Shown piece by piece: positions 30,847 through 57,693 of a stretch of 64,000 nucleotides of DNA; positions within the stretch are counted from its first letter, which is position 1; every line of letters begins with the position of its first letter. The notes beneath the pieces were generated by a model. The model was not told where the DNA came from, did not search any database, and saw only the letters and a list, made by a program, of their open reading frames with translations. The stretch is from Bacillota bacterium (GTDB lineage Bacteria > Bacillota > Clostridia > Christensenellales > UBA3700). The DNA lies in the NCBI GenBank assembly GCA_023396095.1, contig JAEWXG010000012.1, positions 97,718-161,717 of the forward strand, given 5' to 3'. The position numbers and the translations under genes were made by a program.

Positions 30847-30871
30847 AAAAACTCTTTTTCAGAGTTTTTTA
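30845..30871 (-). terminator. intrinsic terminator of the giant-gene operon
   Basis: Minus strand: AAAAACTCT-gaaaa-AGAGTTTTT with a T-run, beginning 7 nt after the stop of the 391-aa lipoprotein gene. Confidence 0.65.
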
Positions 30872-30877
30872 TATTTT

Positions 30878-32053
30878 TTACTTTAATTGCGACAAATCTG
30901 TTCCTGCTGGTGGCTTTCTCTTATCTGAAAATTGTTTACCAAATTTGTTCAAATATTCTTTTTTCCAAATTTTTGTTTCTTCTTGATTTGTTACTGGATT
31001 AATGATTTTTTGTTTTGGCAAATATGATACTTGAACGTTTGAAACTAAAGAAGCTTGTGCTTTAATAGCCCCCAAATCCAACCCGTATGATTCAACATAG
31101 TCTATTTGCCTAATAAAACCATTGTCCCAAACTTCTATAAACATATCTAGCCCTTTATAATCAATCGTTCCGGACTGGCCGCCTAATTCTAACATATCTT
31201 TCATGTTAGCTAAATATTTCCCTTCCCAAGCGCCAGGCAAAAATGATACTTCTATAACGTGAACTTTTGGAACTGCGCCTGCTTTAATTTGTTCTTGAAG
31301 TTGTTTGTAGCTTTCTTCTCTATCTTTTCTGAAAGGCTGTGATTCTAAAAAATCACTTGATGTAAAATCAACATTTGATTGAATATCAATTAGGCTAATC
31401 GTTTCTTCATTCACAACATATCCTAGTATATTATTAGGATCGTCATTAGAGTAATTACTAAAACCTTCAAAATTATTTGCTTTCTTCTCTTGCCATTTAC
31501 CTGACAAATTATAAAATTGGGAAGTATTAGGATCTAACTTTATATTAGATGCATCAACAGCTTGTCTATATATATATCCACCATCTGTTTTTCTCAACAC
31601 TTCAACCATTAATCTAATATCTACCCCAGCAACACCTTTGGAAGTTACTGAATAACTAGAAAAGTAATTTAATGATTGTTCTAAACCTTCATTGCCAGCA
31701 TCTGCTGCCCCTTCTTTCTTCCCTCTTTCAGATAATCTCACCGTCATAACAGATTGAATAACCGTCATTCCTAATGTAACTGTACTTACATCACCAGTTT
31801 GACGATAATATGTAAACGGAGCATATTGCATATTCTTCCAAATATTTGCTAAATGCGCTTTTGAATTCTCCTTATTCTCCCAATCTATTTCGTATTTAGG
31901 AGTTAGCAACTCTTGCGTCTTATAATTTATAGGCGTTGATATTATAGTCGCCTGTGGCTTAAGCTCTAACCCACCTCCGCAAGATGCAAAAGAGGCCACC
32001 ATTAATGATAATATTAAAACTAAAGATATAATCGTTATTTTCTTTGTCTTCAT
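30878..32053 (-). CDS. orphan lipoprotein (391 aa), translationally adjacent to the giant gene
   Basis: Signal peptide plus lipobox SFASC. The ATG lies 3 nt after the giant-gene stop, and the AGGAGG RBS sits inside the giant gene's last codons. No family recognised. Confidence 0.6.
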   Translation of the reverse strand: MKTKKITIISLVLILSLMVASFASCGGGLELKPQATIISTPINYKTQELLTPKYEIDWENKENSKAHLANIWKNMQYAPFTYYRQTGDVSTVTLGMTVIQSVMTVRLSERGKKEGAADAGNEGLEQSLNYFSSYSVTSKGVAGVDIRLMVEVLRKTDGGYIYRQAVDASNIKLDPNTSQFYNLSGKWQEKKANNFEGFSNYSNDDPNNILGYVVNEETISLIDIQSNVDFTSSDFLESQPFRKDREESYKQLQEQIKAGAVPKVHVIEVSFLPGAWEGKYLANMKDMLELGGQSGTIDYKGLDMFIEVWDNGFIRQIDYVESYGLDLGAIKAQASLVSNVQVSYLPKQKIINPVTNQEETKIWKKEYLNKFGKQFSDKRKPPAGTDLSQLK

Positions 32054-32056
32054 ACT

Positions 32057-35000
32057 TTACTGGGCCTCCTTATTATTAGTATTAGCCTTTTTTATTTTCT
32101 TTGTTTTTATCCTAACCATAATACCTAATCCTATTACCGCGATGGATATAATCGACACGAAAGTCATCAATAACTTAACAGATTGTGGAGCTAATGCTTT
32201 TGGATTATTTATGATTACCAAAGCAGCGTTTTTATCACCCTCTATGCCATTAGCTAACACTTTCCCATCACTATCAACAAACACTAGTTCATATTTTGTT
32301 GTATCAACAGATAAAGTCCCTAATGAATACCTATATTCACCTTTCTTTTCTCCTGGTTTTCTTACTAATTGTCCACTAAATACATCTGAATTTAATTCAA
32401 TTTCAAACCATCCTTGTTCATATAATTCATCCAATTTAGCTTCATCTTCTTCCTCTATAGCTTTTAAAACATCATTGCCTAGGAATATTAATTCAAGCGG
32501 ATCAACTTCTGGATCATCTTGAGAAATATATTTAGACATCTTAGCTTTAAAGTGCAATCTAATAATTGTTTTGCGAATATCCATTTCCCCAGGGTATTGA
32601 TTTGTTTCATCAACATCTATCTCGTAATTATCCGACTCACTATCAGTCAATGTAATCATTTGCATTCCAACATCTTCTTTCCAATAATACTTTAACCCTA
32701 GCGCACTGATAGTATCCTTATATGGTACTACTTTAATCTCATCACCAAACGCTTCATACTCATTCCATTCTACAAGCCCGCCACCAACAAATGTAATAGG
32801 TATTTTATCAGTATCTATATCTTGTCCATAATATTTAAGCATTCTTCCAATTCTAATCTTAATTGCTTTTTTGGAAACTGATATATTTACTTCTGCTTTA
32901 TTCCCCTTAACAATTTCAAATGGCTCATTAGCAAGTAATGTTTTATTGATATCAACTGTAACAACATGGGTTCCTGCTCCTAAATTGTTGATTCTTAAAG
33001 CGTTTATATATACATTTCCTTCCCCGTCTCTTTGATATGCAGAAGGCACATTCAAATCAACCTTTATTCCATTAATTGTTAATTTGAACACTTTGAATAA
33101 CTTATCATACGCTAAGTATTCATCAAATATTCTGCCTTTATCTTTATCAGATAAAATCAATATATCTTCTAAACTAATAACCTCATTTGAATATGTTGTT
33201 GCAACATCTTTATAATCTAAATATACCTTTCTCTTTACAACAGAAATATACCAAGGAGATTCTTGAGTCTTATTAACGAAGATAAAATTCTTTTTAATAA
33301 CATCTTCTTGTTCTGGAGTTAATGTTACATTACTTTTTAATATAATTGTCGATAAATCAAGTTCAGCAGGATATTGCATTCCATATTGCAACTTTGATAA
33401 ATCACTTGACCCATTAACCAAAACTTTAGGGATAACCTCAAAATATTTATCGTAATATCCTTCAATTTGATAAGATGGTTGTTTTGATAAATATGGTAAC
33501 TTGATAACTCTATCCTCAGGTAAAACTACTGATATATTTATAGTTTTAGGCATAATAGTAAACTTTAATTGTTCTGGAACAGTATCTCCATTCCAATCTA
33601 CTCCTTGTTTCAACTCTGTAGAAAATTTAATATCAAAATTTGCCGTAATATTTTCATCGCCATATTTTAACGCAAATGAAGAAATTTGATATCCATCAAG
33701 ATCTTCTCCTGATTTTTTAACAACATAATTTCCTAAAACATCTTTTTCCCAAGCATCTAATCCCCAATCGTATACAGGTGTTAATTCAATCGCCCCAAAT
33801 ATTTCTTGCTTGTTAGATAAATATGTATCAACTGCCACTAAATTGTCACTATACTCACTCATTAAAACACGCGTATCACCAGTTGAAGTCCTTGAAACAG
33901 CATATAAATTCAATTGGCCTTTAACAATATTAGCTTTAATTTTAAGTGTGCTCACATCAAAATTATCACCATTGTTTACTTGCGCAGCTTTATCAACATT
34001 CAATTTTGTATTGACAACCAAATTATCACCTAAAGTCATAAACTTTACAGCACCTTTATTCGTAACTTGCAATCTGAGTTGACCGCTAGTGCCATCATTT
34101 AATGTGGCAAAATTAGGATTGCTTTCATTTTTGAACACAAACACACTAACAGCCCCTAATCTGCTCGTTATAAATTTTTCCTTAGCATCATATTTTGACT
34201 TAAAGGTTATCAAATCATTCCCAGATAATAATCTAATCTTTTCTTCATCAAAATCATCTTCTGCCCATCCATTATTTGCAAATTCGTAATTAGCAAGACT
34301 TTTCATCCTTAAAATATATCTATTAAAAGTATAGTCACCAACTTTAAATGTTGTAAGAGCGTTAATAAAATCTTGCTTAGTATTGTAACTTGTTAAGTAA
34401 TATGAAGTTTCATTAATCCCTAGTAAATCCTTCAATTCGACATCTTTCTCGTCTATAAAAGTTAATTTACCTTTATCAAACTTAATGGTTCCTGGTAAAG
34501 TTGTGATTGCAAGCCTAGTACCATCCGAATTAAATGAGTTTTTAAACAATTCAAAACTCATACTATATGCTAATAGTTTATTTAATTCGTTCGTTCTATA
34601 TGTTCCTGTCCCGTCAGTCATAGAAAAATTAAAATAACCATTGCTTTTTTCTTTAATTATTCTCGCAAAAGTATTTGTTCCTTCTGGATAAGTCATAGTA
34701 GAATCCCATGTTGTCCAGTCAATGTTTACATCACTAAAAGAATCGAATCCTTTTTCTTCTGTTCCAATGATTGTAAAATATTGTTTTATATTAGCTATGT
34801 CTGCAGACGCTCCATTTATCTTTGTGATATTTTCTAATGCTTGATCTTTCCCAGACTCCACTTTTCTAAACCCATTAATTGTGTTTCTATAAAATATATC
34901 TATTGAATCAGCGGCATAACCAGTTCCTACTAATTGATTCCATTTTGTAGCTTTTGGAGCCGTAAACTCCACATCTGCTTGCACAATTTTATTTATTGGA

Positions 35001-38000
35001 TTTACTGATTCATCAGCATCTTTCGAAACAATAAACGGAGAAGAACTATCATTATTAAAAGTAAACTTAATGCTTATTTTTCCATTATCTGTATTTCTAA
35101 AAACATAATAGTATTTTCCTTCCTCATATTCATTTTTTATAGCAGACATTAATTGGAATTGAACAGTACATTTGATTATATTTTTTAATTGCTCATATGT
35201 TAACACTTCTTCACCGTTCTTGAACTCATCGCTTTGAAGAATTGTATTAATACTATTTATTCTATCATCAGCATTATCTCCAGAAACTGAACTATTACCT
35301 ATTTTAGTAATCCACATTGCTAACTTATTGTCATTTATTGTTCCCAATATTTTGCTCTCTAAATCGTCCGCATCAAATCTCATTAAAGTTGTTACATCAG
35401 ATGCCTTTAATTGTTTTGTGAATATCGGGTCACTACTATATAAATCAGATAATGTTTTAGTATCTGCTTTAAATGATATAGGGATTTGCTTTTTAGTTCC
35501 CCCAGCTTTTGACATTGATTGTTCGCTTACAAAAGAATTCAATTCATTTACACCGCTAGCATAATTAATCCCACTCATTGGTTGAGAATAGATAGCATTC
35601 ATTGTAAATACTCTATTCGTTGCCACAGCATAACCAGCACCACTCATGGATTGAGATAAAGATTGATTGAGTGATGAGTATTTTTTAACATCATAAGGAG
35701 GATATAGATCCAACTTCAATGTTTCTAATAATTTAAATTCACCAATTTCAGCTGTTTCTTTATCATTTAAAGTTGCTGATGCCGTTACTATAACATTCTT
35801 TAAGTGGATTCTCACTGGTCTATATGGAGGAACATACAACCCAAGTATTACATTCTCAACAATATCAGTACCTATTGTGTTTGTTAAACCTGGAGTTACT
35901 ATACTCCCATCATCAAGATATTCAACATCAATATTTTCAATCGTGACTCTTAAAGGTAAGAATGCACTACCACTAAATTTGTAATCTGATCCGTATGGAT
36001 CACCAATAAACTGAATTTTGTTTGCTAATGCTTTTTTAGATTGTAATTTAACAATTAATCCAGCATTCCATTTTGAAGGATCATTATACGAGAATTGACC
36101 ACCGCTAATTTCAGTTTTTGTAATTTCTTTTAAATAATCTCTCAATCCTTGAATAATTTTTTCCTCATCTAAACTTATCGCACTTAATGTGTATGGTATT
36201 TCTAACATTACATTTTTAACTATTCCATTACCATATGTTAATGAGAATTTTCCATTCTTCAAGTTTGACGATTCATCAAAGTAATCATTTATCTTTTGTG
36301 GAATCATAGATATATCAAAATTGAATTTTGTTGAAGCACCTTGTGCACTAAAGACATATAGTTTCTTTGTAGCGCCACCAATTTCAACTTCAGTTTTACC
36401 GTCTACTAACTCATTATTACCATTAACCATTTGTATTCCAATATCTGTAATACTTGCGATGTATGGATTAATAACAAGCTTTCTTTGACCTGGTAAAATG
36501 TTTTGGAATTTACTATAATCAAACACCTCCCAAACTTCATTAATTTTTACATAAACTTCAAACTTTCCGTCTTTGATATTTGCCTTTCTTACAGCATTCT
36601 TTCCTAATTTAATTTTTACAGTGGAATTTGTTGACACCTCAACATCTGTAACATATGGTTTGTATACCAAGTAATTATTATTTGCTTCAGTAGTTTCTTG
36701 AGTTGGGTCTAATACAATAGCTCCTTGTGACTCATCTTGAACCCACGCAATATCCATTTTATGAGATGTATGACCATATGAACTATACTTGTTTTGTATC
36801 GTTGCTGTTGTAGTTTGAGGTAAATTCATATCCGCCATAGTTTTTGAAATCGCTGTAGCCGAATAAATATCACTCTCTATTGTCCCTTCCGGATTTAAAA
36901 CTGAAATTTGAGTGGCAGATGTAACCTTATCAATTTTTATTCCTCCGTTATTATCAAGTAAAACTTCAATTGTTTCCTCATTACCACCACCACTAGCAGA
37001 TGTTGTTATCTTTATTTGAATAGCTCTAAATATCTTAGAAGAACCTGACGTTGGCTTTTCTAATAAAACTTTTGCATACGCCTCTTCTACAACTCTTCCG
37101 TTTTGCACGCTTGGCAATGGGAATACTGCTTTTACTAATTTTACAACCGCTGGAAGAATATTTTCTACTTGATTAGAAAATTGCATTGCACTTCCATTTA
37201 AGGAAGTAATCATAGAAAGAACAAAAGCAGAAATAGTATTTACAACCATTTTTGAATCATCTCCACCTGCTGCGACAGGATAACCCATTAATTTAAACAA
37301 ACTTCCATTTGCAAAATTAATTAGTTCTGTTACAAATGTTGGCACCAAATTAACAACTATAGAAGTATCGTTAGCTGATCCTATAACACTATTATCCGCA
37401 AATTTAATTATTTGAGGATCTTTAGCATTAATTTGTATAGATTTTATGATTTTACTAATATCAACTTTACCGTCTTCATTCTTAACATTTGGTGGGGTAG
37501 CCTTCTTTTTCTTTAAAACTATTGTTAGCTTCTTTAAATCTTGGTTGCCTTCAACCCAATCGTAAATGGTCAAGAATCCAATATTATTAGCATTGTAACT
37601 AGAACCACCACTAATTGACTGTACATTATTTTGCAACCATTCTTTAGTTATAACTGTACCGTTTTGTAAATAATATGTTCTACTTCCTTCTTTATGGTAC
37701 CCAATATATTTTCCTTCTTTGTCCCAAAATGCAAGATACATATCTTTATTGTGCGATGCTTGCCATTGTCCACCTTCAATAGTAATTTTTTCTAACTGAG
37801 AAATAGGTATCATTTTTGTGTAATGATAGTTATACCCTGACCACAAGAATCGTAATAAATTACCATCATCTCCAATAGCTAATTGCGAATTTATCCCATG
37901 CCCTGGAGAATATGTATATTTTTCAAACTCGCCTTGATCCTCAATTATTGGATCGTCCGGCGTCGTTGTTACCTCTTCTTGCGGATTAAATGCTGCACCT

Positions 38001-41000
38001 AATTTATCTCTAAGCATTGGTCCTAATCCTATTCTTAACCCAGTTATAATAGGCATCAATCCACTAACTACGCCCGTCGTCCCAGGTAAACTATTAATCT
38101 TAATAATTATTTGATCAACAGAAAGATATGCATTTACATCAGAGCCATCAGGGCCATTTATTACAACTTTTATTCCGGATTTAACACTTCCTTGTGCTCC
38201 TACTGTCCTTGTAAATTCTGTATTATCTCTTTTTGCTTTTACGAATAATGATCTCTTGCTTGTGTCGCCGTTATATGATGAGTTATTTGTAATACTCAAA
38301 TTCAAGAAATCAGCTCCATCCGCACCCGTAATTAGTTGTATAACGTTAAATATTAATGCTCTTAAATTTGTCTTATCTTTTGCTATAGCAAGTGCTTTTA
38401 AATCTCCCATTGATAATGCAGCGTATTCACCAGCTTCTGCTTGAGTTGGAATAATATCATTAATATTAGTATAAATTCCATTATTGCCGATAAACTCTCT
38501 AAATTTAAAATTCTTTGCTTCTAATTTTATGTATCCTTTAGATGGAACAGTTGTTTGGTTAGAATTTGCAAAATCTTCAGTATTATAAATTCTTCCGCCG
38601 TCCTTTTTGTTTTCCAAATCGATAACTAGTTTTACAAAATCAATTCCACTTTCAAGTGTTGTTCCGTTCAACTCAGTTTTAACAGCAAACGCCAACATTA
38701 TATCGTTGAAACTAAAGTTATTTAAATATTCAAGCAATTTATTTTGCGCATCAAGAACTTTTTGATTTTCTGGATCATTGAATTGTTGTGTTCCTGGATT
38801 ATAATCAGCACTATTTGCAACTAATAAATCGTTAATCTTTTTATATGCTATTCTCTCAATAAACTTTTTGATGAATGTATCATTAATTTTTACAACAACT
38901 TTAGTGCGAATTCCAGAAACTGCTCCAGATGCATTGTTAATTAACTCTGATCTAATATCTAACTCTGTTCTAATCTTGTTATAATCCGCTATTTCTTCTG
39001 GAGTAGCACCAGACATAGCCATCCTTGTGATAAAGCTTGCATTTTCTGGGAATAAAGTTGGTCCCATGATAGCCAACAAATTAATACCAGTCATTTTTAT
39101 CTTCATTAATCCAAGTTTTTCTAAATCAATATATATTGCATTGTCTTTTGCTATATATGTTATAGCCATTATGACTTGCTCATTATCTTTAACTACCAAT
39201 TTAACTCCAGAATTATTCTTAAATGCTGTAGGACTATCAAAATCTAAAATAGCTCTTGCTTCAAGTTTAAAATTATATTCCTTTCCTTCATTTATGATAA
39301 ATCCAGACTCATAATTTGTAGTCTTTAATAATTCTTTATCAAGAATTTCAAATAGCTTCTTTATAATTGAGTTACTATCATTTGTAAGCTTAATATCTAA
39401 AGTCGCATCAAATCCTAAATCGATTTTTCTAATCGGCAAATTGGCAGCAAAAGGCGCTCCATTTACAATCGACATGAGTTTATCAAACGATAATGATGAA
39501 AATTTAGATAATTTGTTATCTTCAATTTCTTGGATTGGATCTTGATCATAGAATGTTGCATACTCAGGCTTCTTAGCATTACAACTATCTATTACCTTAA
39601 ATGCGGTTCCAGGCCTATTGTTTAAGAATGCTGTTAATTCTACAGTCATGACTCCTGTCTCATTTTTAACACCCTGTTCAACTACAATTTTAATTTCAGC
39701 TTTTCCAGATTCTCCTCCAGTTTGAGAATTGTTTGGACGAACATATTTTAAAGCTATTTCACTCATTGTCGGAATAGCATCCTTTATATATCCAAACATT
39801 TCTTTTTTGTCTTGTGCAGCTTTTTTATCTGCCTCTGAGACTGCGTTATTAACATCTTCTATAAGTTTATTTTCTATAACTTCTAAAATAAGGGATATTA
39901 CTGAAGAATTAATTGAAAGATCAATGCCTTCTTGAAGAACCGATACTCTCAACACAGCTTGTCCAGCTCCTTTAGTTTCATCCTTTGCCATCTTCTGCGC
40001 ACTTGTTGCTTTTGCAGAAGTTGACATTTCAGCTAACGATTCAATAAATTGTTGTACCTTTAAATTCCCCTTAATTAATCCTAATAAATCAAAGTTTTCA
40101 AGCTTAACTCCTGATATACCTAATATTGGGAATTCAACAGCTAACATCTTATCTTCTTGGCTATATAGTATATTTAACACTGTTCTTTGTTCAACTGTAT
40201 TGGTTTCAGAATTTGCTGAATCTTCAACAACTAATAACTGAATTTTTAATTTACTATTATTGACTGAAGTTGTAGTGAATATTTCTGATAGTGGGATATC
40301 GGCATTTAAATATCCTCTAAAGATAGTTTCTACTCCTTCATCAGTTTTTGAATATACCCCTGATACACTGGAGATATCATTTGTAGTGTTTAATTTATTC
40401 ATAACCTTGAATAAACTGCTAACATTAGTATATGCGGAATCTTCCTGTAACGCTTGAATATCTTCTTGAGTATATCCTTTACCTAGAGAATTAAATACAA
40501 GCGCTAACAACCCGCCAATATCCATAAATGGCTTTCCTTCTGATTTAAATTTTATTTCTGTCTCCGCCCTCAATTTTAATGCAAGAGAATGATAAGGTAT
40601 ATATTCATCTTCGTTTATATCAAAGTGAACTGTTTGCCCAATAATAGATGTGTCTCCTACATAGTATAACCCCAATTTGGTTTCTACTTGCTCTTCATCT
40701 ACAAATCCAGGAACTCTACCAATTACTACATCCATACCAAAATCGCCACCGGCATATGTCACACCATCTGGAGTAGTAAAACCACCCAATGTTCTCTCAA
40801 ATCCTAAATGTATTCCTGAAACATCAAAGCCATATCCATAATTAATTGTTGTTTTATATAAATCAAGATAAATTCTTGTAAAATCATCTAATCCCGATTC
40901 TAACTTCATTAAGCTTCTAAACAACGCAGAAAGCATGTTTGGCTCTAACTCAATGTGCGTATAATCATCATTCTCAGTATCCACTTCTTTAATGTATCCT

Positions 41001-44000
41001 AGAATCTTTAATAATTTATCTATTCCATTAGACTGGCTACTTGTATTTGATGATGATTGAGACGCATTAGACTGCGCTGCGCTCACTTCTTTTTGATCAA
41101 TAGCAGACTGAATTGCTCCTTTTATAATTGTTAAAAGATCCAAATCAGTAATCTTAAACTTAGGCATATTAAATGCGGATAGATCTATTAATATATCGTT
41201 TAAGTTAGTGTATATGATTATTGGGCTTTCATAACCAGACACATCAATAATAAGCATCACTTTGCTTTTATAATTTCTTGCAGAAACTTGATCGAAAATA
41301 TCTCCAAAGTTTACTCTTGCCTTCACACTTATTTTAACGTGTTTTGGATTATCGGAGAAACCTGACCCCATTTTTATTTCTGTTTTTAATCTTGACAAAA
41401 TAGACATAGGGGAATCAGCCTCAAAAGCTAAATTAGGGCTGAATAAATATTCAGGACTCTTTAAATACAGATTTATAGATGTAGATAAATCTAAATTCAA
41501 GTCTTTTGCTGGTTTTAGGTTGGCAATCATTTGATTGTCATATATACCTTCTCTTAATGTTCTATCAACATTAATCGCAATACCGCCAACGGATACACTT
41601 ATTCCAAAACCTGGTTCTTGCGTTCCCACCTTATTAAATTCTAAGCCAAGCTCAATATTCAATGGAAAAGCCAAATTTGCAGTAGCCTTTACGCAATTTA
41701 ACTCTGCCCCTGGATTTTGTTCTTCAAATTCTCTAATTGCATCTCCTAAGAACGCTGCAGATGCGGCTCTATTTGCAATTTCAAGTAAAAGACCTTGAAT
41801 ATTCATATAAGTCGTTGCGACACTCAATGTTTGTCCATTATTTAGTGCTTTCCTCAATGACTCAATCTGCACTCTAATTTTTTCAGCCGCTTCAGCTGTT
41901 AAAGTTCCTGAATTTAAACTTTCTTCTAAAGCCCGTATGCTATCACTATACTTAGCACGCGTTGATTTATCAACAATATTAATAGTAGCAATATTGGATG
42001 TAATTTTATCAAGTAAGCTTATTACTTCATCAGCAGTCATCTTTGTTTCATTTGTCTCATTACCTGTTGTGCTGCTATTTGTGTTTCCACCTATTACAAG
42101 TTCATCATTATTTAATGCAGTTAATTTTGCTTTGTTAGATTTTACAACTGCACTATTAATAGTACTTATCAAATCTAATCCAAGATTATCAAAATTCAAG
42201 AAAATATCTTCTCCACTTAAGAAGTTAAAATCTACTAAATCTCCATCTTTATTACGAACTTTTGTATCAGGATCACTACCTCTAAAGATTAATCCTTGAT
42301 GTGGTACTTTAATAATTTGTCCGTTAGACATTTCATTAACATAAATATTTGAGTCATAGATTAAACCAAATAATCTCTTAAACTCTCCTCTATCTTTCTT
42401 CTTCAAAGTTAAACCTAATGATGCATAAGAAAGTTGGAAATTTGTACTTAATTTTGCTTTTTCTTGAGCTTTCAAATATTCATAAGTTCCTGGTACTTCA
42501 ACAATTTCCTTCTTAGCAATATCTAACCTTTCAAAATATCTAAATATATCTTGTATATTTATTCTCGCTGAAATTTCTAGAGCATATTTATCATCAAGTG
42601 AAACACTGTCATTAACTTTATTGCCAATAAATTTTAACAATTCAGTTTTGATTTTGTTCATATTTTCTTCAGTGATATTCACACCATCAATGTATTTAAG
42701 TATTGTCGCTAATAAATTAATCGTAGGGTTCCATTCAATATTTGATAAACTACCTGAAACACCAAGTCCAAGTTGTACCTTAAACGATACATATTGTGGA
42801 TTCAAAGAAGTTAATGATATATTAGTTGCATTTTGTGTAGGAACTAACTCGCCACCAATTTTTTGAATTGATATGAATAAATTATATAACTCAAGTTTAC
42901 CTCTTATTGAATCTGTATATTGCCCGTCTTTAATACCTGTTATACCAACATAAACTCCCCAAGTAGTATCATTTGATTTTTGCTCAACATCTAAGCCTAT
43001 TGTATTAACAAATCTATAAAGAGCAATACCATTCAAATCCACACCAAAAATTTGTAATAATCCTTGAATAAGTATTGATTTTATTCTAAATGATAATTTA
43101 CCATTAATTAATTCAACGAATGTTGAAACTGTTGGTTGTTGTTCATCAACTGAAGCACCTCTATTAAGCAATTTCGTTATTAACTCTAATGCGATACTTT
43201 CTGTATTATTGGAAGAAGTATAATAAACTCCTCCATCACTTTCTTCGTAGTATTTCTTGCTCAAAATATCAACAATTAGTGGTACTATTTTCTTTGGAGC
43301 TCCATTAATCTTTAAACCGTTTTCTTCAATACCCAACAAAGATGATTGAATAAAGATAAAATCACCAATAGATGGTCCCTCATAGTAAACAACTAGTAAG
43401 TTATTTGTATAGTGCGTTATAGGATTTTCAATTCTAATAGCAATTTTTATTTTTGCACCATTAAGCAAGGCTTCTATTATTCCTTTTACTAACGCATTTT
43501 TTAATTTTTCCTTAACAGCTGGATTTTTCAACTCTTCTAGAGAATATTCCGATTTCTTGATTTCATTAAAAATTTTGTTAGCAATTTTTGATAATGGGAT
43601 ATCAATCATAAAATCCAACACTAATTTTTCATCTTTATCCATTGAGAAATTAGAGTTTAGATTTGGAATATTAAGACCAAAGTTTTCCATCACTTCCTTT
43701 AGTGCACTGGAAACAATTTCCCCCGGATTAGTAGTATCAACATTTAATGCAAGAGTTGCTCCAATTCTCATATTGTTAGCCCCAGACTTTAGAATATCTG
43801 GATAACTTGATAATCTACCATTTAGGAATTGCATTCCTAAGAATCTTTCTTCACCAAGTTGATTTATAGGTAACATCTTATCTATACGCGCTTTCTTATT
43901 AGGATCATCATCACTTATGTTACTAAAGTCAAGCCCAGCACCCACATAAGGGATGCCTATGTCGACTTGGAAAAGAGTTTTTTCGTCATTCTTAACTTCT

Positions 44001-47000
44001 GCATTAAGATTTATTCCAACCAATCCTCCCTCTTTAGGGAATAAGTTAACACCTAAAGCAAGGATTACATCGATACCAACATCAGTATCTTCAATCCCTA
44101 CAGCCTCCATTATTACTCTTAAAACTTCAGCAGATGTAACAATGGCTATACCTTGTTGCCCTATTCTTACTGCAGATAATAAGCCTAAAATGTTCTGTCC
44201 CTGCATTAAGCCTTTTAAATTATTTAAAAGTGGAGTCAAGTAATCTTTGAAGGCAGTTAAAACATTTGTAGCAACTGACTCTTCTCCATCTGCTTTAGCC
44301 ATAGCAGCATTGCCAGATAATGAGTTACTCGAGTCAGATTTTGGAGCTAAGAATAATCTCTCAAAAGCTGTCCAATTATCTCCAGATAAATTAATCATCA
44401 ACTTTGAGTCATTTACAGTCTGCCCTTCCAATTGCAAGTTGGTATAAAGTCTACCATATACTTTCAAATTGTCCCCATCAATATATAATGTCAACATTCT
44501 ATCTGGCATCGTTTGATTTTCTGAAATACTAAACTGTAAACTTATTGCAATATTTAAAGAAGAAATAACATCTTTTAATCCATCTGATTTTGCTTTTGCC
44601 ACAACCACTGGATCAACATTTTTAGTCTGCATCTTTTTTACGCCTGATAATAATTTAGAAATGTTAACTCTTCCTGTGATGTACATATTAAATATTAATT
44701 CTCTTCCTGGACTATCAAGATGTAAATATCCGCTTAAATTACTAAATATCTTCTTTGTCTCTTCATTTATAACATCTGGATTAGCATTTTGTATTAATTC
44801 TTCTAATTTATCATATAGTTGTTGATAACTGTGATGTAAGAAATCATCACCATTTGTATTTCCTAAAATGAAATTAGTTCTCAATGCTAAATTAACCGCA
44901 ACATACTTTCCTTTGGTCCCGCCACTTGTTTCATAATCATTAACAATTTTGTCTAGATTAAATTCTGTTACTAACTCATCAATTGATGTATATTTATCTT
45001 TTTCACTATCTGGTACATAATTTGTAGATTCAGCCGTTGAAACTGCAATATGCAAATCAGATATTGATAATAATATCTTCATCCCACCTGTTTGATTTAC
45101 TGTATCACTAAACAATATATCAGTTAACGCCAAGTTAATGCCAATTCCGGTTGTTGAATAACTCATCCCAAATGAAATTTTTGCTTTTGGCAAACTCTCT
45201 TCATTAATAACCACAGGATTACCATTACTGTCTTTTACTCCAGCAAGTGCTGTTTTTAAAATCACACCTAGAGCAGTATTTGCTAATGTAATTTGGAATT
45301 CTCTACTTGTAAAACTAATACCACCAATCACTCCTAAAATCATTGATGCCGCATCAATTTTTGCTTTTTCTTTTTTCTTTTCCTCTGTGTTAGTTATATT
45401 CCCAGCATTCTCTTGTCCTGCAATTTCTCCGCTTGCATCATTTACGATTTCTTTATTGCTAGATTTTTCCTTAGCACCAAGAGTTTTAAGTTTTTCATTA
45501 ATCAATTGAACCAAATTTACATTTTGTTTTAAATCTGGTAACGTTGTATCGCCAAAATCAATATATAGCGTTCCATCTCCATTAATATTTCCATTGTTTT
45601 GAATAACTTCTGAATCATACATTAATGTCAAGAATGGCTTTCCATCATATCTATCCCATTCTGGATTATCTCTCCATTGAGTTCCGGAAATAACAGCATT
45701 TATACTCTTCGAGATATCTATTTGAATTTTTGCGTTAATTTGTTTTAATAATTTTTCTGGACTAACTTTTGAGAATAAAACCTTCAAACCTGCAAAACTT
45801 GCTAAATTTTTAAACGCCTCTTCTGTTACTCCAAAATCTTCTAAAGCATTTATTCTCGCAGAAAGTTCTATCGAAATTTGTATTGCTAAATCGAATCCTT
45901 CCGTTGCAGTTATATCTAAACTAAAATCATGGTTAGGCTTGCCCTTGAAAAAAACATCTTCACTTTTTTCTAATTTGTCCTTTAATTCTGGGCTAAGATT
46001 CTTTAAAAATTGAATTAGTTCTAAATTTCCTGCTTGTCCACTTTGTACAAGAAGCCTTATCTTTGTAGAAACTATTACTTTTTTCAATTCAGTTAATTTC
46101 AAGAATTCGCCATTATCACGAGCTGTCTTAACAATGTCCATTCTTGCTTTGTAATCTTCACCAGGGTAGAAAAATAGTTGTAATTTTTCTATTCCCAAAC
46201 TTACTCTAGTATTTGCAGGCTGACTTTCATCATCATCTTGGAATGCTACAGATATTTGCAATTTACCAGCAATATTACTCCAGCTTTCTAATTGTTCCTC
46301 ACCTTGAACACCTTGAACCCCAACTGAAAGTCTAATATCCTTAATTGAATTGTCTATTAAGTTATTAATTAAACCTAACATCAATCCAGTTGTTCCATTA
46401 TTATCTTTTGATAAATTTTTAATGCTTCTTAAAACGCCTGATAAGTTTTCTTGAGATAATACTAAATTAAGCATACCTCCATCAATTGAACTATCATTAA
46501 CTATGGCTGCAATATAATCTAATAACTTAAGATCACCATTAGGACCCATTGCCATAGATTGTATCGCTTGTAACTTATTAGCTTCATTAAAGATTACTTG
46601 TTTATCTTTACCATCATTTAGAATCATTAGTTTTAAATTCTTAACACTGGCTGAATTCTGATTATTAAGTGATGCTTGTACATCTTCCTTAGTAACATCT
46701 TGATTACCACTATTTTTCTTTTCAGCAACCATCCCCATTATAAAGCCAATTAAACCTTTTGATGATAAATCCCTTAAGAATGAAGACATTTTTTGCAAGA
46801 ATGGATTATAAATTAAGCTCTTTAAATCTATACTTCCTATCATAACTTTTGGCATACCGATTCCGGATAAATCCAATAGAACATCGCTATAGCCTACAGA
46901 AGTACTTGGTAATAAATATACTCCTATTAAAACTAAATTATTATCTGATGTATCAGTAAGTTCAACTGAAAGTGTACTCTTGTGAATATTAGCATTTAAT

Positions 47001-48703
47001 CTAATATCACTTCTAATTTTTAATTTAAAGCCATGAACCCCAGCAGAAATAGTAAATGTCTTGTCGGACAAATTTTGTATTAGATACTTAAAAGTATTTG
47101 TAGTTTTATATTGATTATACGCACTCTTTAAAGTTTCTTGTTCTACAGAAACTAATATACTACTTAATTTTGTTGTATATAGTTTTTCAATTGCTTCAAC
47201 CGAAAGATTTTTGCCTTCTTCAGCAACTCCCAACATTGCATAGAATTTATTATTTAAATTATCAATGCTACCTACATTCTCAGCAATCTTATTGTGTAAT
47301 AATTCTTTTTTCCTCTCTTCTGTTGCCAAATTATATGATCTCAATTCATTGGCATCAAAAAGCATTAACTCTGCAAGAGTAATAGTTCTATCTTCTTTTG
47401 TTTGCAAATCAATTGCTAGTTGCAAATCAAGTTTTCCAAAATTAAATTCATTTCCATTATCAATTAACTCTTCAACATTATTGAATGCTGTTTCAATATC
47501 TTCCGGGAAGGAAATTTGAATGTCAGCAGCGTTTAAAGAATCTTCGATAAAAAATCTCGTATTAGACGTTCTAAATTCCAATTGTGTTTTTTCTGAAGAT
47601 TCTTCACCTAAATATTTATCAAACACGGCTTTTTGTCTTGATTTACCAATCGATTCTATACTTCCATCTTTTGCTAAAACAAAGTAGAAGTTAGAATTAT
47701 TTAGTGTTACAGGATAATGCTTTAAATCTTCTATAGTCAAACCTTTTGGAGGCTGGTTATTTTTCTCATCATATTTTTTAATAAATGCGTTTACAAGAGT
47801 ATTTATACTTCCTATTTCATCTAGTTTATCTCCTAAAAGATTTTCAACTAGTTGAGGAACTTTAGCTATAACAGGAAGCATTGCATTAACAAATTTACCC
47901 AAATTAAATCCCATATCATATCTTGTTAACTCTGGGTTATCTGGAACTTGTGACACCTTAACTTCTGTATTGAAAATAATCGGGAAAATAACTGGTCCTA
48001 TAAACTCTAACAATTTGATAGAATTTCCATCAACATTCAAAGTAATATCCCCTGACAATATATCAGAGGCAATTTTTCTAAAATACTCATCAAATCCATA
48101 GCGGCTAAAATAATAATAAATCTTATTAAGTTGAACATCTGAAATATATAGAGGCTTTAATGTGCTACCAGCACCATTAAATATTTTGAACAATAATTTT
48201 CCTTCTTTATAGTAAAATCCAAAAACACGTTGGTCAGGATCTAAAGATTTTGTTGAAAAGACTTCAATTGAAACTTCATTTTTGTCTGCTGTTAAATCAT
48301 TCGGGTTGCTTGCATCTAATTCAAGTGAGGCTGTTGTTATTATTCGGGTTTGAGTAGTTTCTCCATTCTTATCTTCTTGAATTATGGTTTCAACTTTTTG
48401 GTTCAGTTTGTTGTTCCCATTTTTCATAAAGTTTTCAACAACTGGCCCTTGTGAAATTTTTAAACCATTAAGCAATTTCTTAAAAGCATCATATGGCTTA
48501 ATCGAATTAGCATCGATTGATTGCTTACTTTTATCAGCTGTTACATTTCCAGTAATCTCAACACCTTCTCCTAACAAAGATTTGTAAATTTCATTAGGGT
48601 CTGTTGACGCCTGTTTTTTGTTGCAAGCTGTCAATACAAACACTGACATTAAAACAACTAATAGAATTGATATTGCTACGAAAATTTTAGATTTTTGTCT
48701 CAT
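32057..48703 (-). CDS. giant surface protein (5,548 aa): N-terminal lipoprotein signal, ~10 cryptic large modules, beta-rich/MBG-like C-terminal third, C-terminal TM anchor
   Basis: A single uninterrupted ORF. Start set at ATG 48703 after a GGGGAGG RBS (MRQKSKIFVAISILLVVLMSVFVLTAC). C-terminus: LLMTFVSIISIAVIGLGIMV-RIKTKKIKK. MBG-like segments are SKKAIKIRIGRMLKYYGQD and LVRKPGEKKGEYRYSLGTLSVDTTKYELVF. Confidence 0.85.
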   Translation of the reverse strand: MRQKSKIFVAISILLVVLMSVFVLTACNKKQASTDPNEIYKSLLGEGVEITGNVTADKSKQSIDANSIKPYDAFKKLLNGLKISQGPVVENFMKNGNNKLNQKVETIIQEDKNGETTQTRIITTASLELDASNPNDLTADKNEVSIEVFSTKSLDPDQRVFGFYYKEGKLLFKIFNGAGSTLKPLYISDVQLNKIYYYFSRYGFDEYFRKIASDILSGDITLNVDGNSIKLLEFIGPVIFPIIFNTEVKVSQVPDNPELTRYDMGFNLGKFVNAMLPVIAKVPQLVENLLGDKLDEIGSINTLVNAFIKKYDEKNNQPPKGLTIEDLKHYPVTLNNSNFYFVLAKDGSIESIGKSRQKAVFDKYLGEESSEKTQLEFRTSNTRFFIEDSLNAADIQISFPEDIETAFNNVEELIDNGNEFNFGKLDLQLAIDLQTKEDRTITLAELMLFDANELRSYNLATEERKKELLHNKIAENVGSIDNLNNKFYAMLGVAEEGKNLSVEAIEKLYTTKLSSILVSVEQETLKSAYNQYKTTNTFKYLIQNLSDKTFTISAGVHGFKLKIRSDIRLNANIHKSTLSVELTDTSDNNLVLIGVYLLPSTSVGYSDVLLDLSGIGMPKVMIGSIDLKSLIYNPFLQKMSSFLRDLSSKGLIGFIMGMVAEKKNSGNQDVTKEDVQASLNNQNSASVKNLKLMILNDGKDKQVIFNEANKLQAIQSMAMGPNGDLKLLDYIAAIVNDSSIDGGMLNLVLSQENLSGVLRSIKNLSKDNNGTTGLMLGLINNLIDNSIKDIRLSVGVQGVQGEEQLESWSNIAGKLQISVAFQDDDESQPANTRVSLGIEKLQLFFYPGEDYKARMDIVKTARDNGEFLKLTELKKVIVSTKIRLLVQSGQAGNLELIQFLKNLSPELKDKLEKSEDVFFKGKPNHDFSLDITATEGFDLAIQISIELSARINALEDFGVTEEAFKNLASFAGLKVLFSKVSPEKLLKQINAKIQIDISKSINAVISGTQWRDNPEWDRYDGKPFLTLMYDSEVIQNNGNINGDGTLYIDFGDTTLPDLKQNVNLVQLINEKLKTLGAKEKSSNKEIVNDASGEIAGQENAGNITNTEEKKKEKAKIDAASMILGVIGGISFTSREFQITLANTALGVILKTALAGVKDSNGNPVVINEESLPKAKISFGMSYSTTGIGINLALTDILFSDTVNQTGGMKILLSISDLHIAVSTAESTNYVPDSEKDKYTSIDELVTEFNLDKIVNDYETSGGTKGKYVAVNLALRTNFILGNTNGDDFLHHSYQQLYDKLEELIQNANPDVINEETKKIFSNLSGYLHLDSPGRELIFNMYITGRVNISKLLSGVKKMQTKNVDPVVVAKAKSDGLKDVISSLNIAISLQFSISENQTMPDRMLTLYIDGDNLKVYGRLYTNLQLEGQTVNDSKLMINLSGDNWTAFERLFLAPKSDSSNSLSGNAAMAKADGEESVATNVLTAFKDYLTPLLNNLKGLMQGQNILGLLSAVRIGQQGIAIVTSAEVLRVIMEAVGIEDTDVGIDVILALGVNLFPKEGGLVGINLNAEVKNDEKTLFQVDIGIPYVGAGLDFSNISDDDPNKKARIDKMLPINQLGEERFLGMQFLNGRLSSYPDILKSGANNMRIGATLALNVDTTNPGEIVSSALKEVMENFGLNIPNLNSNFSMDKDEKLVLDFMIDIPLSKIANKIFNEIKKSEYSLEELKNPAVKEKLKNALVKGIIEALLNGAKIKIAIRIENPITHYTNNLLVVYYEGPSIGDFIFIQSSLLGIEENGLKINGAPKKIVPLIVDILSKKYYEESDGGVYYTSSNNTESIALELITKLLNRGASVDEQQPTVSTFVELINGKLSFRIKSILIQGLLQIFGVDLNGIALYRFVNTIGLDVEQKSNDTTWGVYVGITGIKDGQYTDSIRGKLELYNLFISIQKIGGELVPTQNATNISLTSLNPQYVSFKVQLGLGVSGSLSNIEWNPTINLLATILKYIDGVNITEENMNKIKTELLKFIGNKVNDSVSLDDKYALEISARINIQDIFRYFERLDIAKKEIVEVPGTYEYLKAQEKAKLSTNFQLSYASLGLTLKKKDRGEFKRLFGLIYDSNIYVNEMSNGQIIKVPHQGLIFRGSDPDTKVRNKDGDLVDFNFLSGEDIFLNFDNLGLDLISTINSAVVKSNKAKLTALNNDELVIGGNTNSSTTGNETNETKMTADEVISLLDKITSNIATINIVDKSTRAKYSDSIRALEESLNSGTLTAEAAEKIRVQIESLRKALNNGQTLSVATTYMNIQGLLLEIANRAASAAFLGDAIREFEEQNPGAELNCVKATANLAFPLNIELGLEFNKVGTQEPGFGISVSVGGIAINVDRTLREGIYDNQMIANLKPAKDLNLDLSTSINLYLKSPEYLFSPNLAFEADSPMSILSRLKTEIKMGSGFSDNPKHVKISVKARVNFGDIFDQVSARNYKSKVMLIIDVSGYESPIIIYTNLNDILIDLSAFNMPKFKITDLDLLTIIKGAIQSAIDQKEVSAAQSNASQSSSNTSSQSNGIDKLLKILGYIKEVDTENDDYTHIELEPNMLSALFRSLMKLESGLDDFTRIYLDLYKTTINYGYGFDVSGIHLGFERTLGGFTTPDGVTYAGGDFGMDVVIGRVPGFVDEEQVETKLGLYYVGDTSIIGQTVHFDINEDEYIPYHSLALKLRAETEIKFKSEGKPFMDIGGLLALVFNSLGKGYTQEDIQALQEDSAYTNVSSLFKVMNKLNTTNDISSVSGVYSKTDEGVETIFRGYLNADIPLSEIFTTTSVNNSKLKIQLLVVEDSANSETNTVEQRTVLNILYSQEDKMLAVEFPILGISGVKLENFDLLGLIKGNLKVQQFIESLAEMSTSAKATSAQKMAKDETKGAGQAVLRVSVLQEGIDLSINSSVISLILEVIENKLIEDVNNAVSEADKKAAQDKKEMFGYIKDAIPTMSEIALKYVRPNNSQTGGESGKAEIKIVVEQGVKNETGVMTVELTAFLNNRPGTAFKVIDSCNAKKPEYATFYDQDPIQEIEDNKLSKFSSLSFDKLMSIVNGAPFAANLPIRKIDLGFDATLDIKLTNDSNSIIKKLFEILDKELLKTTNYESGFIINEGKEYNFKLEARAILDFDSPTAFKNNSGVKLVVKDNEQVIMAITYIAKDNAIYIDLEKLGLMKIKMTGINLLAIMGPTLFPENASFITRMAMSGATPEEIADYNKIRTELDIRSELINNASGAVSGIRTKVVVKINDTFIKKFIERIAYKKINDLLVANSADYNPGTQQFNDPENQKVLDAQNKLLEYLNNFSFNDIMLAFAVKTELNGTTLESGIDFVKLVIDLENKKDGGRIYNTEDFANSNQTTVPSKGYIKLEAKNFKFREFIGNNGIYTNINDIIPTQAEAGEYAALSMGDLKALAIAKDKTNLRALIFNVIQLITGADGADFLNLSITNNSSYNGDTSKRSLFVKAKRDNTEFTRTVGAQGSVKSGIKVVINGPDGSDVNAYLSVDQIIIKINSLPGTTGVVSGLMPIITGLRIGLGPMLRDKLGAAFNPQEEVTTTPDDPIIEDQGEFEKYTYSPGHGINSQLAIGDDGNLLRFLWSGYNYHYTKMIPISQLEKITIEGGQWQASHNKDMYLAFWDKEGKYIGYHKEGSRTYYLQNGTVITKEWLQNNVQSISGGSSYNANNIGFLTIYDWVEGNQDLKKLTIVLKKKKATPPNVKNEDGKVDISKIIKSIQINAKDPQIIKFADNSVIGSANDTSIVVNLVPTFVTELINFANGSLFKLMGYPVAAGGDDSKMVVNTISAFVLSMITSLNGSAMQFSNQVENILPAVVKLVKAVFPLPSVQNGRVVEEAYAKVLLEKPTSGSSKIFRAIQIKITTSASGGGNEETIEVLLDNNGGIKIDKVTSATQISVLNPEGTIESDIYSATAISKTMADMNLPQTTTATIQNKYSSYGHTSHKMDIAWVQDESQGAIVLDPTQETTEANNNYLVYKPYVTDVEVSTNSTVKIKLGKNAVRKANIKDGKFEVYVKINEVWEVFDYSKFQNILPGQRKLVINPYIASITDIGIQMVNGNNELVDGKTEVEIGGATKKLYVFSAQGASTKFNFDISMIPQKINDYFDESSNLKNGKFSLTYGNGIVKNVMLEIPYTLSAISLDEEKIIQGLRDYLKEITKTEISGGQFSYNDPSKWNAGLIVKLQSKKALANKIQFIGDPYGSDYKFSGSAFLPLRVTIENIDVEYLDDGSIVTPGLTNTIGTDIVENVILGLYVPPYRPVRIHLKNVIVTASATLNDKETAEIGEFKLLETLKLDLYPPYDVKKYSSLNQSLSQSMSGAGYAVATNRVFTMNAIYSQPMSGINYASGVNELNSFVSEQSMSKAGGTKKQIPISFKADTKTLSDLYSSDPIFTKQLKASDVTTLMRFDADDLESKILGTINDNKLAMWITKIGNSSVSGDNADDRINSINTILQSDEFKNGEEVLTYEQLKNIIKCTVQFQLMSAIKNEYEEGKYYYVFRNTDNGKISIKFTFNNDSSSPFIVSKDADESVNPINKIVQADVEFTAPKATKWNQLVGTGYAADSIDIFYRNTINGFRKVESGKDQALENITKINGASADIANIKQYFTIIGTEEKGFDSFSDVNIDWTTWDSTMTYPEGTNTFARIIKEKSNGYFNFSMTDGTGTYRTNELNKLLAYSMSFELFKNSFNSDGTRLAITTLPGTIKFDKGKLTFIDEKDVELKDLLGINETSYYLTSYNTKQDFINALTTFKVGDYTFNRYILRMKSLANYEFANNGWAEDDFDEEKIRLLSGNDLITFKSKYDAKEKFITSRLGAVSVFVFKNESNPNFATLNDGTSGQLRLQVTNKGAVKFMTLGDNLVVNTKLNVDKAAQVNNGDNFDVSTLKIKANIVKGQLNLYAVSRTSTGDTRVLMSEYSDNLVAVDTYLSNKQEIFGAIELTPVYDWGLDAWEKDVLGNYVVKKSGEDLDGYQISSFALKYGDENITANFDIKFSTELKQGVDWNGDTVPEQLKFTIMPKTINISVVLPEDRVIKLPYLSKQPSYQIEGYYDKYFEVIPKVLVNGSSDLSKLQYGMQYPAELDLSTIILKSNVTLTPEQEDVIKKNFIFVNKTQESPWYISVVKRKVYLDYKDVATTYSNEVISLEDILILSDKDKGRIFDEYLAYDKLFKVFKLTINGIKVDLNVPSAYQRDGEGNVYINALRINNLGAGTHVVTVDINKTLLANEPFEIVKGNKAEVNISVSKKAIKIRIGRMLKYYGQDIDTDKIPITFVGGGLVEWNEYEAFGDEIKVVPYKDTISALGLKYYWKEDVGMQMITLTDSESDNYEIDVDETNQYPGEMDIRKTIIRLHFKAKMSKYISQDDPEVDPLELIFLGNDVLKAIEEEDEAKLDELYEQGWFEIELNSDVFSGQLVRKPGEKKGEYRYSLGTLSVDTTKYELVFVDSDGKVLANGIEGDKNAALVIINNPKALAPQSVKLLMTFVSIISIAVIGLGIMVRIKTKKIKKANTNNKEAQ

Positions 48704-48747
48704 AATAGCCTCCCCGAAAGACATTAACCTTAATTAATATGTATATA

Positions 48748-48775
48748 TATTTTATCAAGAAAAAAAATTAAGTCA
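48748..48775 (-). promoter_or_regulatory. promoter candidate for the giant gene
   Basis: Minus strand: TTGACT (48775-48770), 16-nt spacer, TGaTAAAAT extended -10 (48756-48748), about 45 nt before the ATG. Confidence 0.5.
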
Positions 48776-48922
48776 ATTTTACAATGTAAATTTTTTAACC
48801 TAACTAATCTTGCTTCTTTTAAAAATTCAGCCCAAAATAAGACTTTTTAAGCGCTTTTAATTGTAAAAAATGTGTAAAGATTGTAAAAAAAGATGAAAAA
48901 AATTTTTTGAAAATTCTATCAT

Positions 48923-49747
48923 TTAAGCATAAAAAGCTTTTGCTAGAATACCAATTTTAACATTCTCGTTGACTATAACAAATTTCCCGTTTTCTATTTT
49001 CCCATAATCGTCTATAATATCAATTTTAAATGCAATTTTGGCAAATAGATACTTTTGAGGAGTTCCTCTCGGATTCCCATTGTCATCAACAAATTGAAGT
49101 TCAACATAATTTCCTTGTATCCTATATGTACCTAATAATTTATCATAAACATCTTCATTGGTTGTATTTTTAGCAAATACTTTTCCTTGCTCAAAAAGTG
49201 CGACATTTGAACTAGAATTCCCCGAAGGAATAACATAATATCCCTCAATAGTAGTTAAACTTTCATTGCTTTTTTGTATTCTAATTGCAGTTATATGCTC
49301 ATTTTTAATTAGATAGTTTTCGAATTTTGTAATCTCTGTATAATTTTCTTGCAAAGATTTTGCTAATGCCTGCAATGCAGATTTAATCGCAGGATTGTTT
49401 TCTTTCTCAATCAAATTGTTTATATTTTTTAAGTTATTATTTAGAATGGATGCATCATATGTCATGTACAATACATTGTTTTTCTTGTCATAATTATAGT
49501 TCCCATGATTTACTGAACCACTCTCCTGACTATAAATTTCTTGAAATCTTTTTTCGTTTTCAAACTTGATATACATATTAGATTTTTCAAACATCTGCTG
49601 AGAATCATTAAAGGTGTATAAAAAGTACTTATGTCTTATCCTTAAATTAATTGTTGAACACGACAAAAAAGTCGCTACAACAAATATGGCAACAAAAAAA
49701 ACACATATGAGCCTCATCGTTGCAGAATTTTTTATTTTTTCTTTCAT
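48923..49747 (-). CDS. orphan lipoprotein (274 aa) upstream of the giant gene
   Basis: Hydrophobic signal followed by FLSC (a relaxed lipobox). No recognisable family and no clear RBS. Confidence 0.55.
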   Translation of the reverse strand: MKEKIKNSATMRLICVFFVAIFVVATFLSCSTINLRIRHKYFLYTFNDSQQMFEKSNMYIKFENEKRFQEIYSQESGSVNHGNYNYDKKNNVLYMTYDASILNNNLKNINNLIEKENNPAIKSALQALAKSLQENYTEITKFENYLIKNEHITAIRIQKSNESLTTIEGYYVIPSGNSSSNVALFEQGKVFAKNTTNEDVYDKLLGTYRIQGNYVELQFVDDNGNPRGTPQKYLFAKIAFKIDIIDDYGKIENGKFVIVNENVKIGILAKAFYA

Positions 49748-57653: not shown

Positions 57654-57693
57654 AATTGCCTCCCAAATCAATACAACACGTTATATATAAAAC

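Follow-up and report, generated by a model that had tools for sequence, protein, structure and literature searches.

A single uninterrupted gene of 16.6 kb lies on the minus strand of the 64-kb stretch of contig JAEWXG010000012.1 analysed here (the window). Its 5548-residue product, the giant, is predicted to be a surface protein with a membrane tether at each end, and the gene is followed at once by one for a 391-residue lipoprotein, its partner. The uninterrupted frame had been reported from the letters alone, in what we call the sequence-only reading, and both the list of open reading frames (ORFs) and the translation confirm it. GC content is ~30% across the whole window, and a frame that stays open for 5,555 codons in such DNA is too long to have arisen by chance. 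Throughout, coordinates are those of the window, and residue numbers of the giant follow the 5555-residue frame that opens at the upstream one of two in-frame ATG codons. The locus comprises the following features.

30843..30874, minus strand: terminator-like AT-rich hairpin and T-run, directly past the partner stop (-9.2 kcal/mol, z = -3.6 against shuffled sequences)
30878..32053, minus strand: partner lipoprotein gene, 391 residues, lipobox FASC with Cys25, coupled to the giant
32065..32070, minus strand: Shine-Dalgarno sequence AGGAGG of the partner, within the last codons of the giant
32057..48703, minus strand: giant gene, 5548 residues from ATG 48703, or 5555 from the in-frame ATG 48724 (ORF list and translation)
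48709..48715, minus strand: Shine-Dalgarno sequence GGGGAGG of the giant, 5 nt upstream of ATG 48703 (sequence reading)
48749..48776, minus strand: promoter-like site of the giant, TTGACT, 16 nt, TAAAAT, with an extended -10 TG (consensus scan)
48923..49747, minus strand: upstream putative lipoprotein gene adjacent to the giant, 274 residues, lipobox FLSC with C30
49782..49754, minus strand: promoter-like site of the 274-residue gene, TTGACA-17-TATATT (consensus scan)

The ATG at 48703 is more likely to be the start of the giant than that at 48724, because GGGGAGG precedes it by 5 nt and because P0003, the public gene call, which is identical to the window product, likewise has 5548 residues. 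The promoter-like sites are pattern matches only, as their count in the region is not above that in shuffled sequence. At the other end of the gene, the junction with the partner can be read directly from the letters and is as first described, with the ribosome-binding site inside the giant gene: AGGAGG occupies 32070-32065, the giant stop codon TAA 32059-32057, and after 3 nt the partner begins at ATG 32053. Upstream, 199 bp separate the end of the 274-residue gene from the first giant ATG.

The product of the giant gene can be divided as follows, where P0004 is its full-length relative of 5510 residues.

48623..48703, minus strand: lipoprotein signal peptide, MRQKSKIFVAISILLVVLMSVFVLTA then C, the Cys34 codon being 48623-48625
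46685..48622, minus strand: N-terminal head, residues 35-680, 33% identical to P0004, including the conserved hydrophobic IGPVIFPIIF
37955..46684, minus strand: eight diverged alpha/beta modules, residues 681-3590, delimited by motif spacing, linkers and alignment
37556..37915, minus strand: segment rich in Trp and other aromatic residues, residues 3604-3723, with 5 of the 26 Trp of the giant
32975..37555, minus strand: region of residues 3724-5250, which has no detectable internal repeats or known domains
32273..32392, minus strand: MBG (YGX-type)-like core, residues 5445-5484, inside the membrane-proximal region of residues 5251-5510
32060..32182, minus strand: C-terminal transmembrane (TM) helix, residues ~5515-5537, and basic tail RIKTKKIKKANTNNKEAQ

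A Kyte-Doolittle scan of the giant finds just two hydrophobic segments, the N-terminal signal and the C-terminal helix. The signal ends in the lipobox VLTAC (...VFVLTAC, Cys34), the equivalent of which is VFVLFAC in P0004, the full-length relative with a recovered N-terminus. The basic residues that follow the helix (RIKTKKIKK) correspond to the tail KKYKK of P0004. That both ends carry a membrane anchor had been predicted beforehand, and the prediction is strengthened by the conservation of lipobox, helix and tail in P0004 at ~30% identity, with helix and tail also kept in contigs L001, L004 and L007. No LPXTG-like motif precedes the C-terminal hydrophobic segment of the giant (NNPKALAPQSVKLLMTFVSIISIAVIGLGIMVRIKTKKIKK) or that of P0004. 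The giant, the partner and the 274-residue protein are all predicted lipoproteins under the pattern [LVI][ASTVI][GAS]C in the first ~40 residues, behind a basic n-region and a hydrophobic h-region. The lipobox of the partner is SFASC (C25), with VSC in all partner homologues, and that of the 274-residue protein, TFLSC (C30), is looser. The 64-kb window encodes five predicted lipoproteins altogether, including one at 3263-4429 (minus strand) with lipobox LVSC at C30 and a DUF6273 domain; genes for lgt and lsp are absent from it. A second large surface protein of 1729 residues (52482-57671, minus strand) opens with a signal or anchor and contains no known domains; it ends in a TM helix and, behind that, an acidic repeat tail of VEEP type that is predicted to be cytoplasmic, again not LPXTG. 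Because this protein also has a C-terminal TM anchor, helix anchoring seems to be the usual way in which this organism holds its big surface proteins. The giant itself shows no similarity to the 1729-residue protein or to the other lipoproteins of the window.

Relatives of the giant are rare. An exhaustive HMMER scan, with residues 2481-3519 as query against 1.84 billion representatives of 15 billion proteins, matched the giant itself and one other cluster, P0004, and nothing else; the family thus amounts to two 50%-identity clusters among these representatives. P0004 is collinear with the giant over its full length at ~30% identity (23-41% in stretches of 200 residues). A third full-length homologue, of 5472 residues and 52% identical to P0004, lies on the 102-kb contig L007 (Logan contig SRR14740317_141), and the two full-length relatives are collinear with the window giant at 26-30% identity. 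Housekeeping neighbours in L007 are only 29-52% identical to their counterparts in the window. Close relatives of the window giant are seen as fragments at 95% and 67% identity, the homologues on the short contigs L001-L004 being C-terminal fragments. The identical gene is present on independent assemblies, in contigs of up to 320 kb, and L006 is the twin contig of the window. Importantly, both the giant and the partner are under purifying selection: against the closest relative, the ratio of nonsynonymous to synonymous substitution rates (dN/dS) stands at 0.05 in the partner and 0.11 in the C-terminus of the giant, compared with 0.26 in the adjacent solute-binding protein (SBP) gene. Dispensable decay, which the sequence-only reading had kept in view, fails as an account of the gene because the orthologues are intact, of near-constant length (5548, 5510 and 5472 residues) and under purifying selection.

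Searches of Pfam, NCBIfam, PHROGs and PDB sequences gave no significant match to any of the three proteins (giant, partner and 274-residue protein), and the first impression that most of the giant and both small lipoproteins cannot be assigned to a named family therefore stands. The proposal had also been staked on there being no characterised adhesin or S-layer family that the giant matches confidently over its full length, and none was found. Neither the giant nor the partner has phage or plasmid homologues (including tblastn against phages); a profile scan of genome contigs with the partner family and both scans of metagenome contigs gave no match, and the literature yielded no comparable doubly anchored giant lipoprotein. 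From these searches, the family has been found so far only in what appears to be a small clade of uncultured low-GC Bacillota-type bacteria.

The partner accompanies the giant wherever the gene order can be read. It has five distinct homologues (P0001 at 98% identity, P0002 at 80%, P0007 at 42% and P0008 at 43% among them), and every homologue on a readable contig sits directly downstream of a giant-gene homologue. In the four lineages inspected (the window, L004, L005 and L007) the ribosome-binding site of the partner always lies inside the last codons of the giant, and the partner starts either 2-3 nt past the giant stop or with an overlap of 11 or 14 nt. The coupling noted at first sight is thus an arrangement kept in four lineages. 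At every divergence the partner is more conserved than the giant, at 80 versus 67%, 69 versus 52% and 43 versus 26-30% identity. A promoter-like site before the giant and the terminator-like hairpin after the partner mark the probable limits of the unit. We therefore read the pair as a conserved two-gene operon, because of the conserved adjacency, the ribosome-binding site inside the giant, the higher conservation of the partner and the terminator-like hairpin. The ABC (ATP-binding cassette) importer, PAP2 and AMP-binding genes that flank the unit are also syntenic in L007 and L008, which is part of the general collinearity of these genomes and not a specific link to the giant unit. As to the fold of the partner, a family profile built from five sequences matched the Pam3 tube protein in the PDB (E 0.046 over 57 residues, partner residues ~144-211), and Pfam Phage_tail_2 matched the family at E 0.13 in two identical members only (the L005 partner) and in a different region from the Pam3 match; tblastn of the partner against phages gave no match. 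These hints of a phage tail-tube-like fold are weak and may be coincidence.

The ectodomain of the giant is modular, in a way that ordinary comparison hardly reveals. BLASTP self-comparison found no internal repeats, Smith-Waterman z-scores are weak (module-module mean 0.88 versus 0.07 for module-control), and a hidden Markov model (HMM) built from six motif seeds recovered its seeds only. The modules become convincing only with two-orthologue profiles and linker-to-linker alignment. An end motif, 'hYIDLxxLGhPKhKh..DLhxLI', recurs every ~340-430 residues and is followed each time by a polar linker, which places the module boundaries at residues 681, 1101, 1476, 1836, 2216, 2556, 2911, 3246 and 3591 and gives modules of ~335-420 residues. 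With two-orthologue profiles, hhalign joins m2841 and m3176 across 254 columns (E 1e-4); three further motif matches, which bring m590, m2481 and m3176 into line, are also in register. Consistently, a 16-row linker-to-linker alignment of the window and P0004 modules has collinear blocks, including 'hxhxhxARhNhxDhF' and the terminal motif. Between orthologues the end motifs reach up to 56% identity, against an average of 29%. The module duplications appear to be ancient, each module having been individually retained since, because the modules share only 13-18% identity among themselves yet correspond one-to-one between orthologues. An AF2 model of residues 2911-3245, made from the 16-row alignment, reached a pLDDT of 58 and a pTM of 0.41 and is mixed alpha/beta, with long strands, a helical hairpin and further helices. 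Foldseek searches of this model against the PDB and BFVD returned noise only, with no structural neighbours, and profile searches against the PDB with the modules, the C-terminal 1,950 residues and both halves of the giant gave no match.

Outside the modules, several stretches stand out. Within the head, a near-invariant hydrophobic stretch at residues ~239-255 (47960-48010, minus strand), LLEFIGPVIFPIIF in the giant and IMELIGPIVFPIIF in P0004, is conserved far above its surroundings and is too short and weak for a TM score. Past the last module, residues 3604-3723 contain 23 W/Y/F/H per 120 residues against a mean of 10.6, and the densest Trp cluster of P0004 occupies the matching position. 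This segment, about two-thirds along the ectodomain, may be a carbohydrate-binding-like domain. For the region that follows (residues 3724-5250), a three-orthologue profile had no match in the PDB. The membrane-proximal region is the best conserved part of the giant, and PF18676 (MBG, YGX type) is the top match at the homologous position in all four orthologues, with 25.1 bits in L005, 21.1 in L007, 20.8 in the window and 14.7 in L004 against a gathering threshold of 25.

On balance, we lean slightly towards reading the two genes as an operon for a surface adhesion or coat apparatus, in which a doubly tethered giant is bound by its partner lipoprotein. The giant would be exported through Sec and would be cleaved and lipid-modified at Cys34, and at its other end the TM helix would act as a stop-transfer segment, holding the basic tail in the cytoplasm. 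Some 5,480 residues would then lie outside the cell, tethered at both ends, in the order head, eight modules, Trp-rich segment, long region that has no known domains, and MBG-type domain near the membrane. The partner would be made together with the giant by translational coupling and would bind it at the membrane, as a subunit that helps to assemble, stabilise or co-anchor it, and the pair would form a cell-surface adhesion or coat structure. The export, lipidation and topology in this scheme are predicted from sorting signals, and the contact between partner and giant from the coupling and conservation of their genes.

Several points weigh against this adhesion or coat apparatus. That both ends sit in the same membrane is an assumption about the host envelope. 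The MBG match is marginal and at the Pfam cut-off in one orthologue only, and no ligand-binding or enzymatic domain was identified in the giant. The sole usable structure model is moderate (pLDDT 58), and the AF2 model of the partner, from a three-sequence alignment, has a pLDDT of 29.6 and was not used. Lastly, near-constant length with one-to-one modules is unusual for adhesins, in which the number of repeats commonly varies, and these properties fit a structural scaffold at least as well as an adhesin. We accordingly picture a defined structure rather than a freely expandable stalk, because the length is constant and the repeats are not homogenised, and for the same reason we keep an envelope scaffold as a serious rival.

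In that alternative, which we judge unlikely and still worth weighing, the doubly tethered giant would run along the membrane or arch over it as a fixed-length exoskeleton or spacer, with the partner as membrane-side organiser. It would account for lengths that stay within 1.4% (5548, 5510 and 5472 residues) with all modules collinear at 26-30% identity, for the lack of recent repeat homogenisation, for the membrane anchors at both ends, and for the short hydrophobic or amphipathic helix that opens each module after each linker. However, an MBG-type domain and a Trp-rich segment are more typical of binding proteins, and the scaffold overlaps with the adhesion or coat reading to the point that sequence analysis does not separate the two. 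A more novel picture, a kind of cell-surface apparatus not described before, is doubtful as a whole: a fixed-length giant, anchored by lipid and helix, that would form a loop or membrane-parallel lattice with a distal aromatic-rich binding domain, with an obligatory stoichiometric lipoprotein subunit of new fold, in a family confined to a small clade of uncultured gut Bacillota and with no detectable relatives elsewhere.

A further proposal concerns the extent of the unit. The sequence-only reading had the giant gene bracketed by two lipoprotein genes, which would make the 274-residue protein the third dedicated component of a three-gene cassette. The gene is indeed adjacent to the giant on the same strand, encodes a lipobox, and also lies next to the giant in the twin contig L006. 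However, the 199-bp spacer contains a promoter-like site of the giant's own, and the partial upstream ORF of L005, of which an 81-residue end is available, has no similarity to the 274-residue protein. That protein has a single cluster mate at at least 90% identity and no others found, and no relatives in a JGI metagenome scan, no sensitive homologue search having been run. The expectation that both small genes would accompany giant genes in related genomes is consequently borne out for the 391-residue homologues, which consistently adjoin them, and not for the 274-residue gene, a counterpart of which was not detected in L005. On these comparisons, membership of the 274-residue gene in the giant unit is unsupported rather than disproved, and we regard a three-gene cassette as quite improbable.

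Less probable again, and by our estimate very unlikely, is a bridge-like lipid or envelope transport protein analogous to AsmA, TamB and YhdP, which would span the two membranes of a diderm host with its lipid anchor in one and its TM helix in the other. The giant shares with those proteins a very long, membrane-anchored envelope architecture, here with an anchor at both ends, and many long amphipathic beta-strands (judged by eye; the strands of the model have 9-13 residues). In contrast to them, its anchoring is reversed, its module model is mixed alpha/beta with helical hairpins instead of a continuous beta-taco, and the window gives no sign of an outer membrane. Pfam and NCBIfam gave no AsmA, AsmA_2, DUF490 (TamB), DUF3971 or Chorein match, and Foldseek against the PDB gave no TamB or VPS13-type match, with a best TM-score below 0.2.

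That the ORF is non-functional or artefactual (a gene in decay, a chimeric assembly, or the cargo of a phage or plasmid) is suggested by its orphan status and nothing more, and is scarcely credible: decay and misassembly are excluded by the identical gene on independent assemblies, the intact orthologues in several species-level lineages and a dN/dS well below 1, and a phage or plasmid origin was rejected, as there are no such homologues and the context is one of chromosomal housekeeping genes.

Among characterised surface proteins, one of the closest in layout is the staphylococcal Ebh, which is implicated in adhesion and envelope integrity. Ebh has a giant ectodomain and an N-terminal signal, and is held not by LPXTG/sortase anchoring but by a C-terminal TM helix whose cytoplasmic tail is positively charged; it consists of many near-identical FIVAR/GA/DUF1542 helical repeats and is not known to have a lipobox. 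Compared through Pfam only, the giant resembles Ebh in its multi-thousand-residue ectodomain, N-terminal signal, and C-terminal helix with basic tail. It differs in that its modules are ancient and diverged (13-18% identity), its lipobox is conserved and it has a coupled lipoprotein partner; no FIVAR, GA or DUF1542 repeats were found in it with Pfam at E values up to 1. The Spiroplasma ScARPs and the phytoplasma Vmp, Imp and Amp proteins likewise have a signal peptide, a repeated ectodomain, a C-terminal TM helix and a short tail. The likeness to them lies in type I topology and in hosts that are low-GC relatives of Bacillota. Unlike the giant, these mollicute proteins are 10- to 50-fold smaller, have short repeats (~40-80 residues), are not known to have a coupled lipoprotein and are not predicted to be lipid-modified, and they have no known sequence similarity to it.

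With MBG (PF18676) surface proteins the giant shares the match at residues ~5445-5484 and a KYYGQ / KKYYG motif, whereas more than 95% of its length has no detectable relation to them. Pfam detected no wall-binding domains (SLH, CWB2, LysM or the like) in any of the three proteins of the locus, the 274-residue one included, and in the giant none of the features of RTX adhesins of type I secretion systems (T1SS; SiiE and LapA type), namely BIg/cadherin-like repeats and RTX nonapeptides. That type also has a C-terminal T1SS signal and adjacent ABC/MFP/OMP export genes, whereas the giant starts with a Sec/lipoprotein signal and finishes with a TM helix, and the ABC system next to it is an importer of the SBP_bac_3 type. 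As far as these profiles and signals can tell, the giant belongs to none of the LPXTG, S-layer, RTX, AsmA, Ebh and mollicute-type families, because their defining features were looked for and are missing, and its topology is like that of the helix-anchored proteins of Ebh and mollicute type. What appears to set it apart is a second (lipid) anchor, ancient non-homogenised modules and an obligatory, conserved lipoprotein partner.

Giant genes of bacteria mostly encode surface proteins, and almost all characterised ones are stacks of recognisable repeats. The giant differs in being an orphan in sequence and fold, with no Pfam domain but the marginal MBG, and in keeping its length, module order and two anchors across lineages whose housekeeping proteins are 29-52% identical. 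It further differs in having a translationally coupled lipoprotein partner that is conserved even better than itself. Should the pair prove to be a defined structure of the envelope, it would reveal how members of an uncultured lineage, probably associated with the gut, build or decorate their surface, and it would add two new protein families to structural catalogues, one of them a ~350-residue module. If the pair is just a lineage-specific adhesin, it would be a well-delimited but ordinary giant surface protein.

The giant locus is chromosomal. Downstream of the unit lie an amino-acid-type ABC importer (SBP_bac_3 protein, permease and ATPase), a PAP2 gene, a gene for an AMP-binding enzyme and a shikimate operon, and upstream lie DegV, a small exporter, a PP-loop ATPase, the second large surface protein, OGG, the L21-Prp-L27 operon, RNase G, ROK and an MreB-like gene. 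In the shikimate operon, an ORF of 502 residues (16576-18084, minus strand) fuses chorismate mutase, the N-terminal domain of shikimate dehydrogenase and shikimate kinase. The operon for L21, a Prp-like protease and L27 (58904-59829, minus strand) encodes an L27 with an N-terminal extension, an arrangement that we take to be typical of Bacillota, Mollicutes and Fusobacteria and to be the best taxonomic hint of the window. Together with strong strand bias, GC skew and TAA-rich stop codons (26 TAA, 5 TAG and 2 TGA), the L27 extension and Prp fit a Bacillota/Mollicutes-type organism.

An integrated mobile element occupies 6166-15831, beside tRNA-Leu(GAG) at 15748-15831, and comprises the following genes.

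6166-7212: Fic protein
8838-11135: DUF3987/PriCT primase-helicase
12554-13885 and 13863-15437: two large serine recombinases

The primase-helicase shares 48% identity, over 98% of its length, with that of a human-faeces phage and also matches phages of Streptococcus, Ruminococcus, Oscillospiraceae and Anaeroplasmataceae (one for Anaeroplasmataceae); these relatives, apparently gut phages of Bacillota, are a hint of habitat only. An MreB/Mbl-family protein at 62479-63480 (minus strand) scores only modestly in Pfam (188 bits) and is possibly a divergent paralogue of MreB, which matters for the question of a host cell wall.

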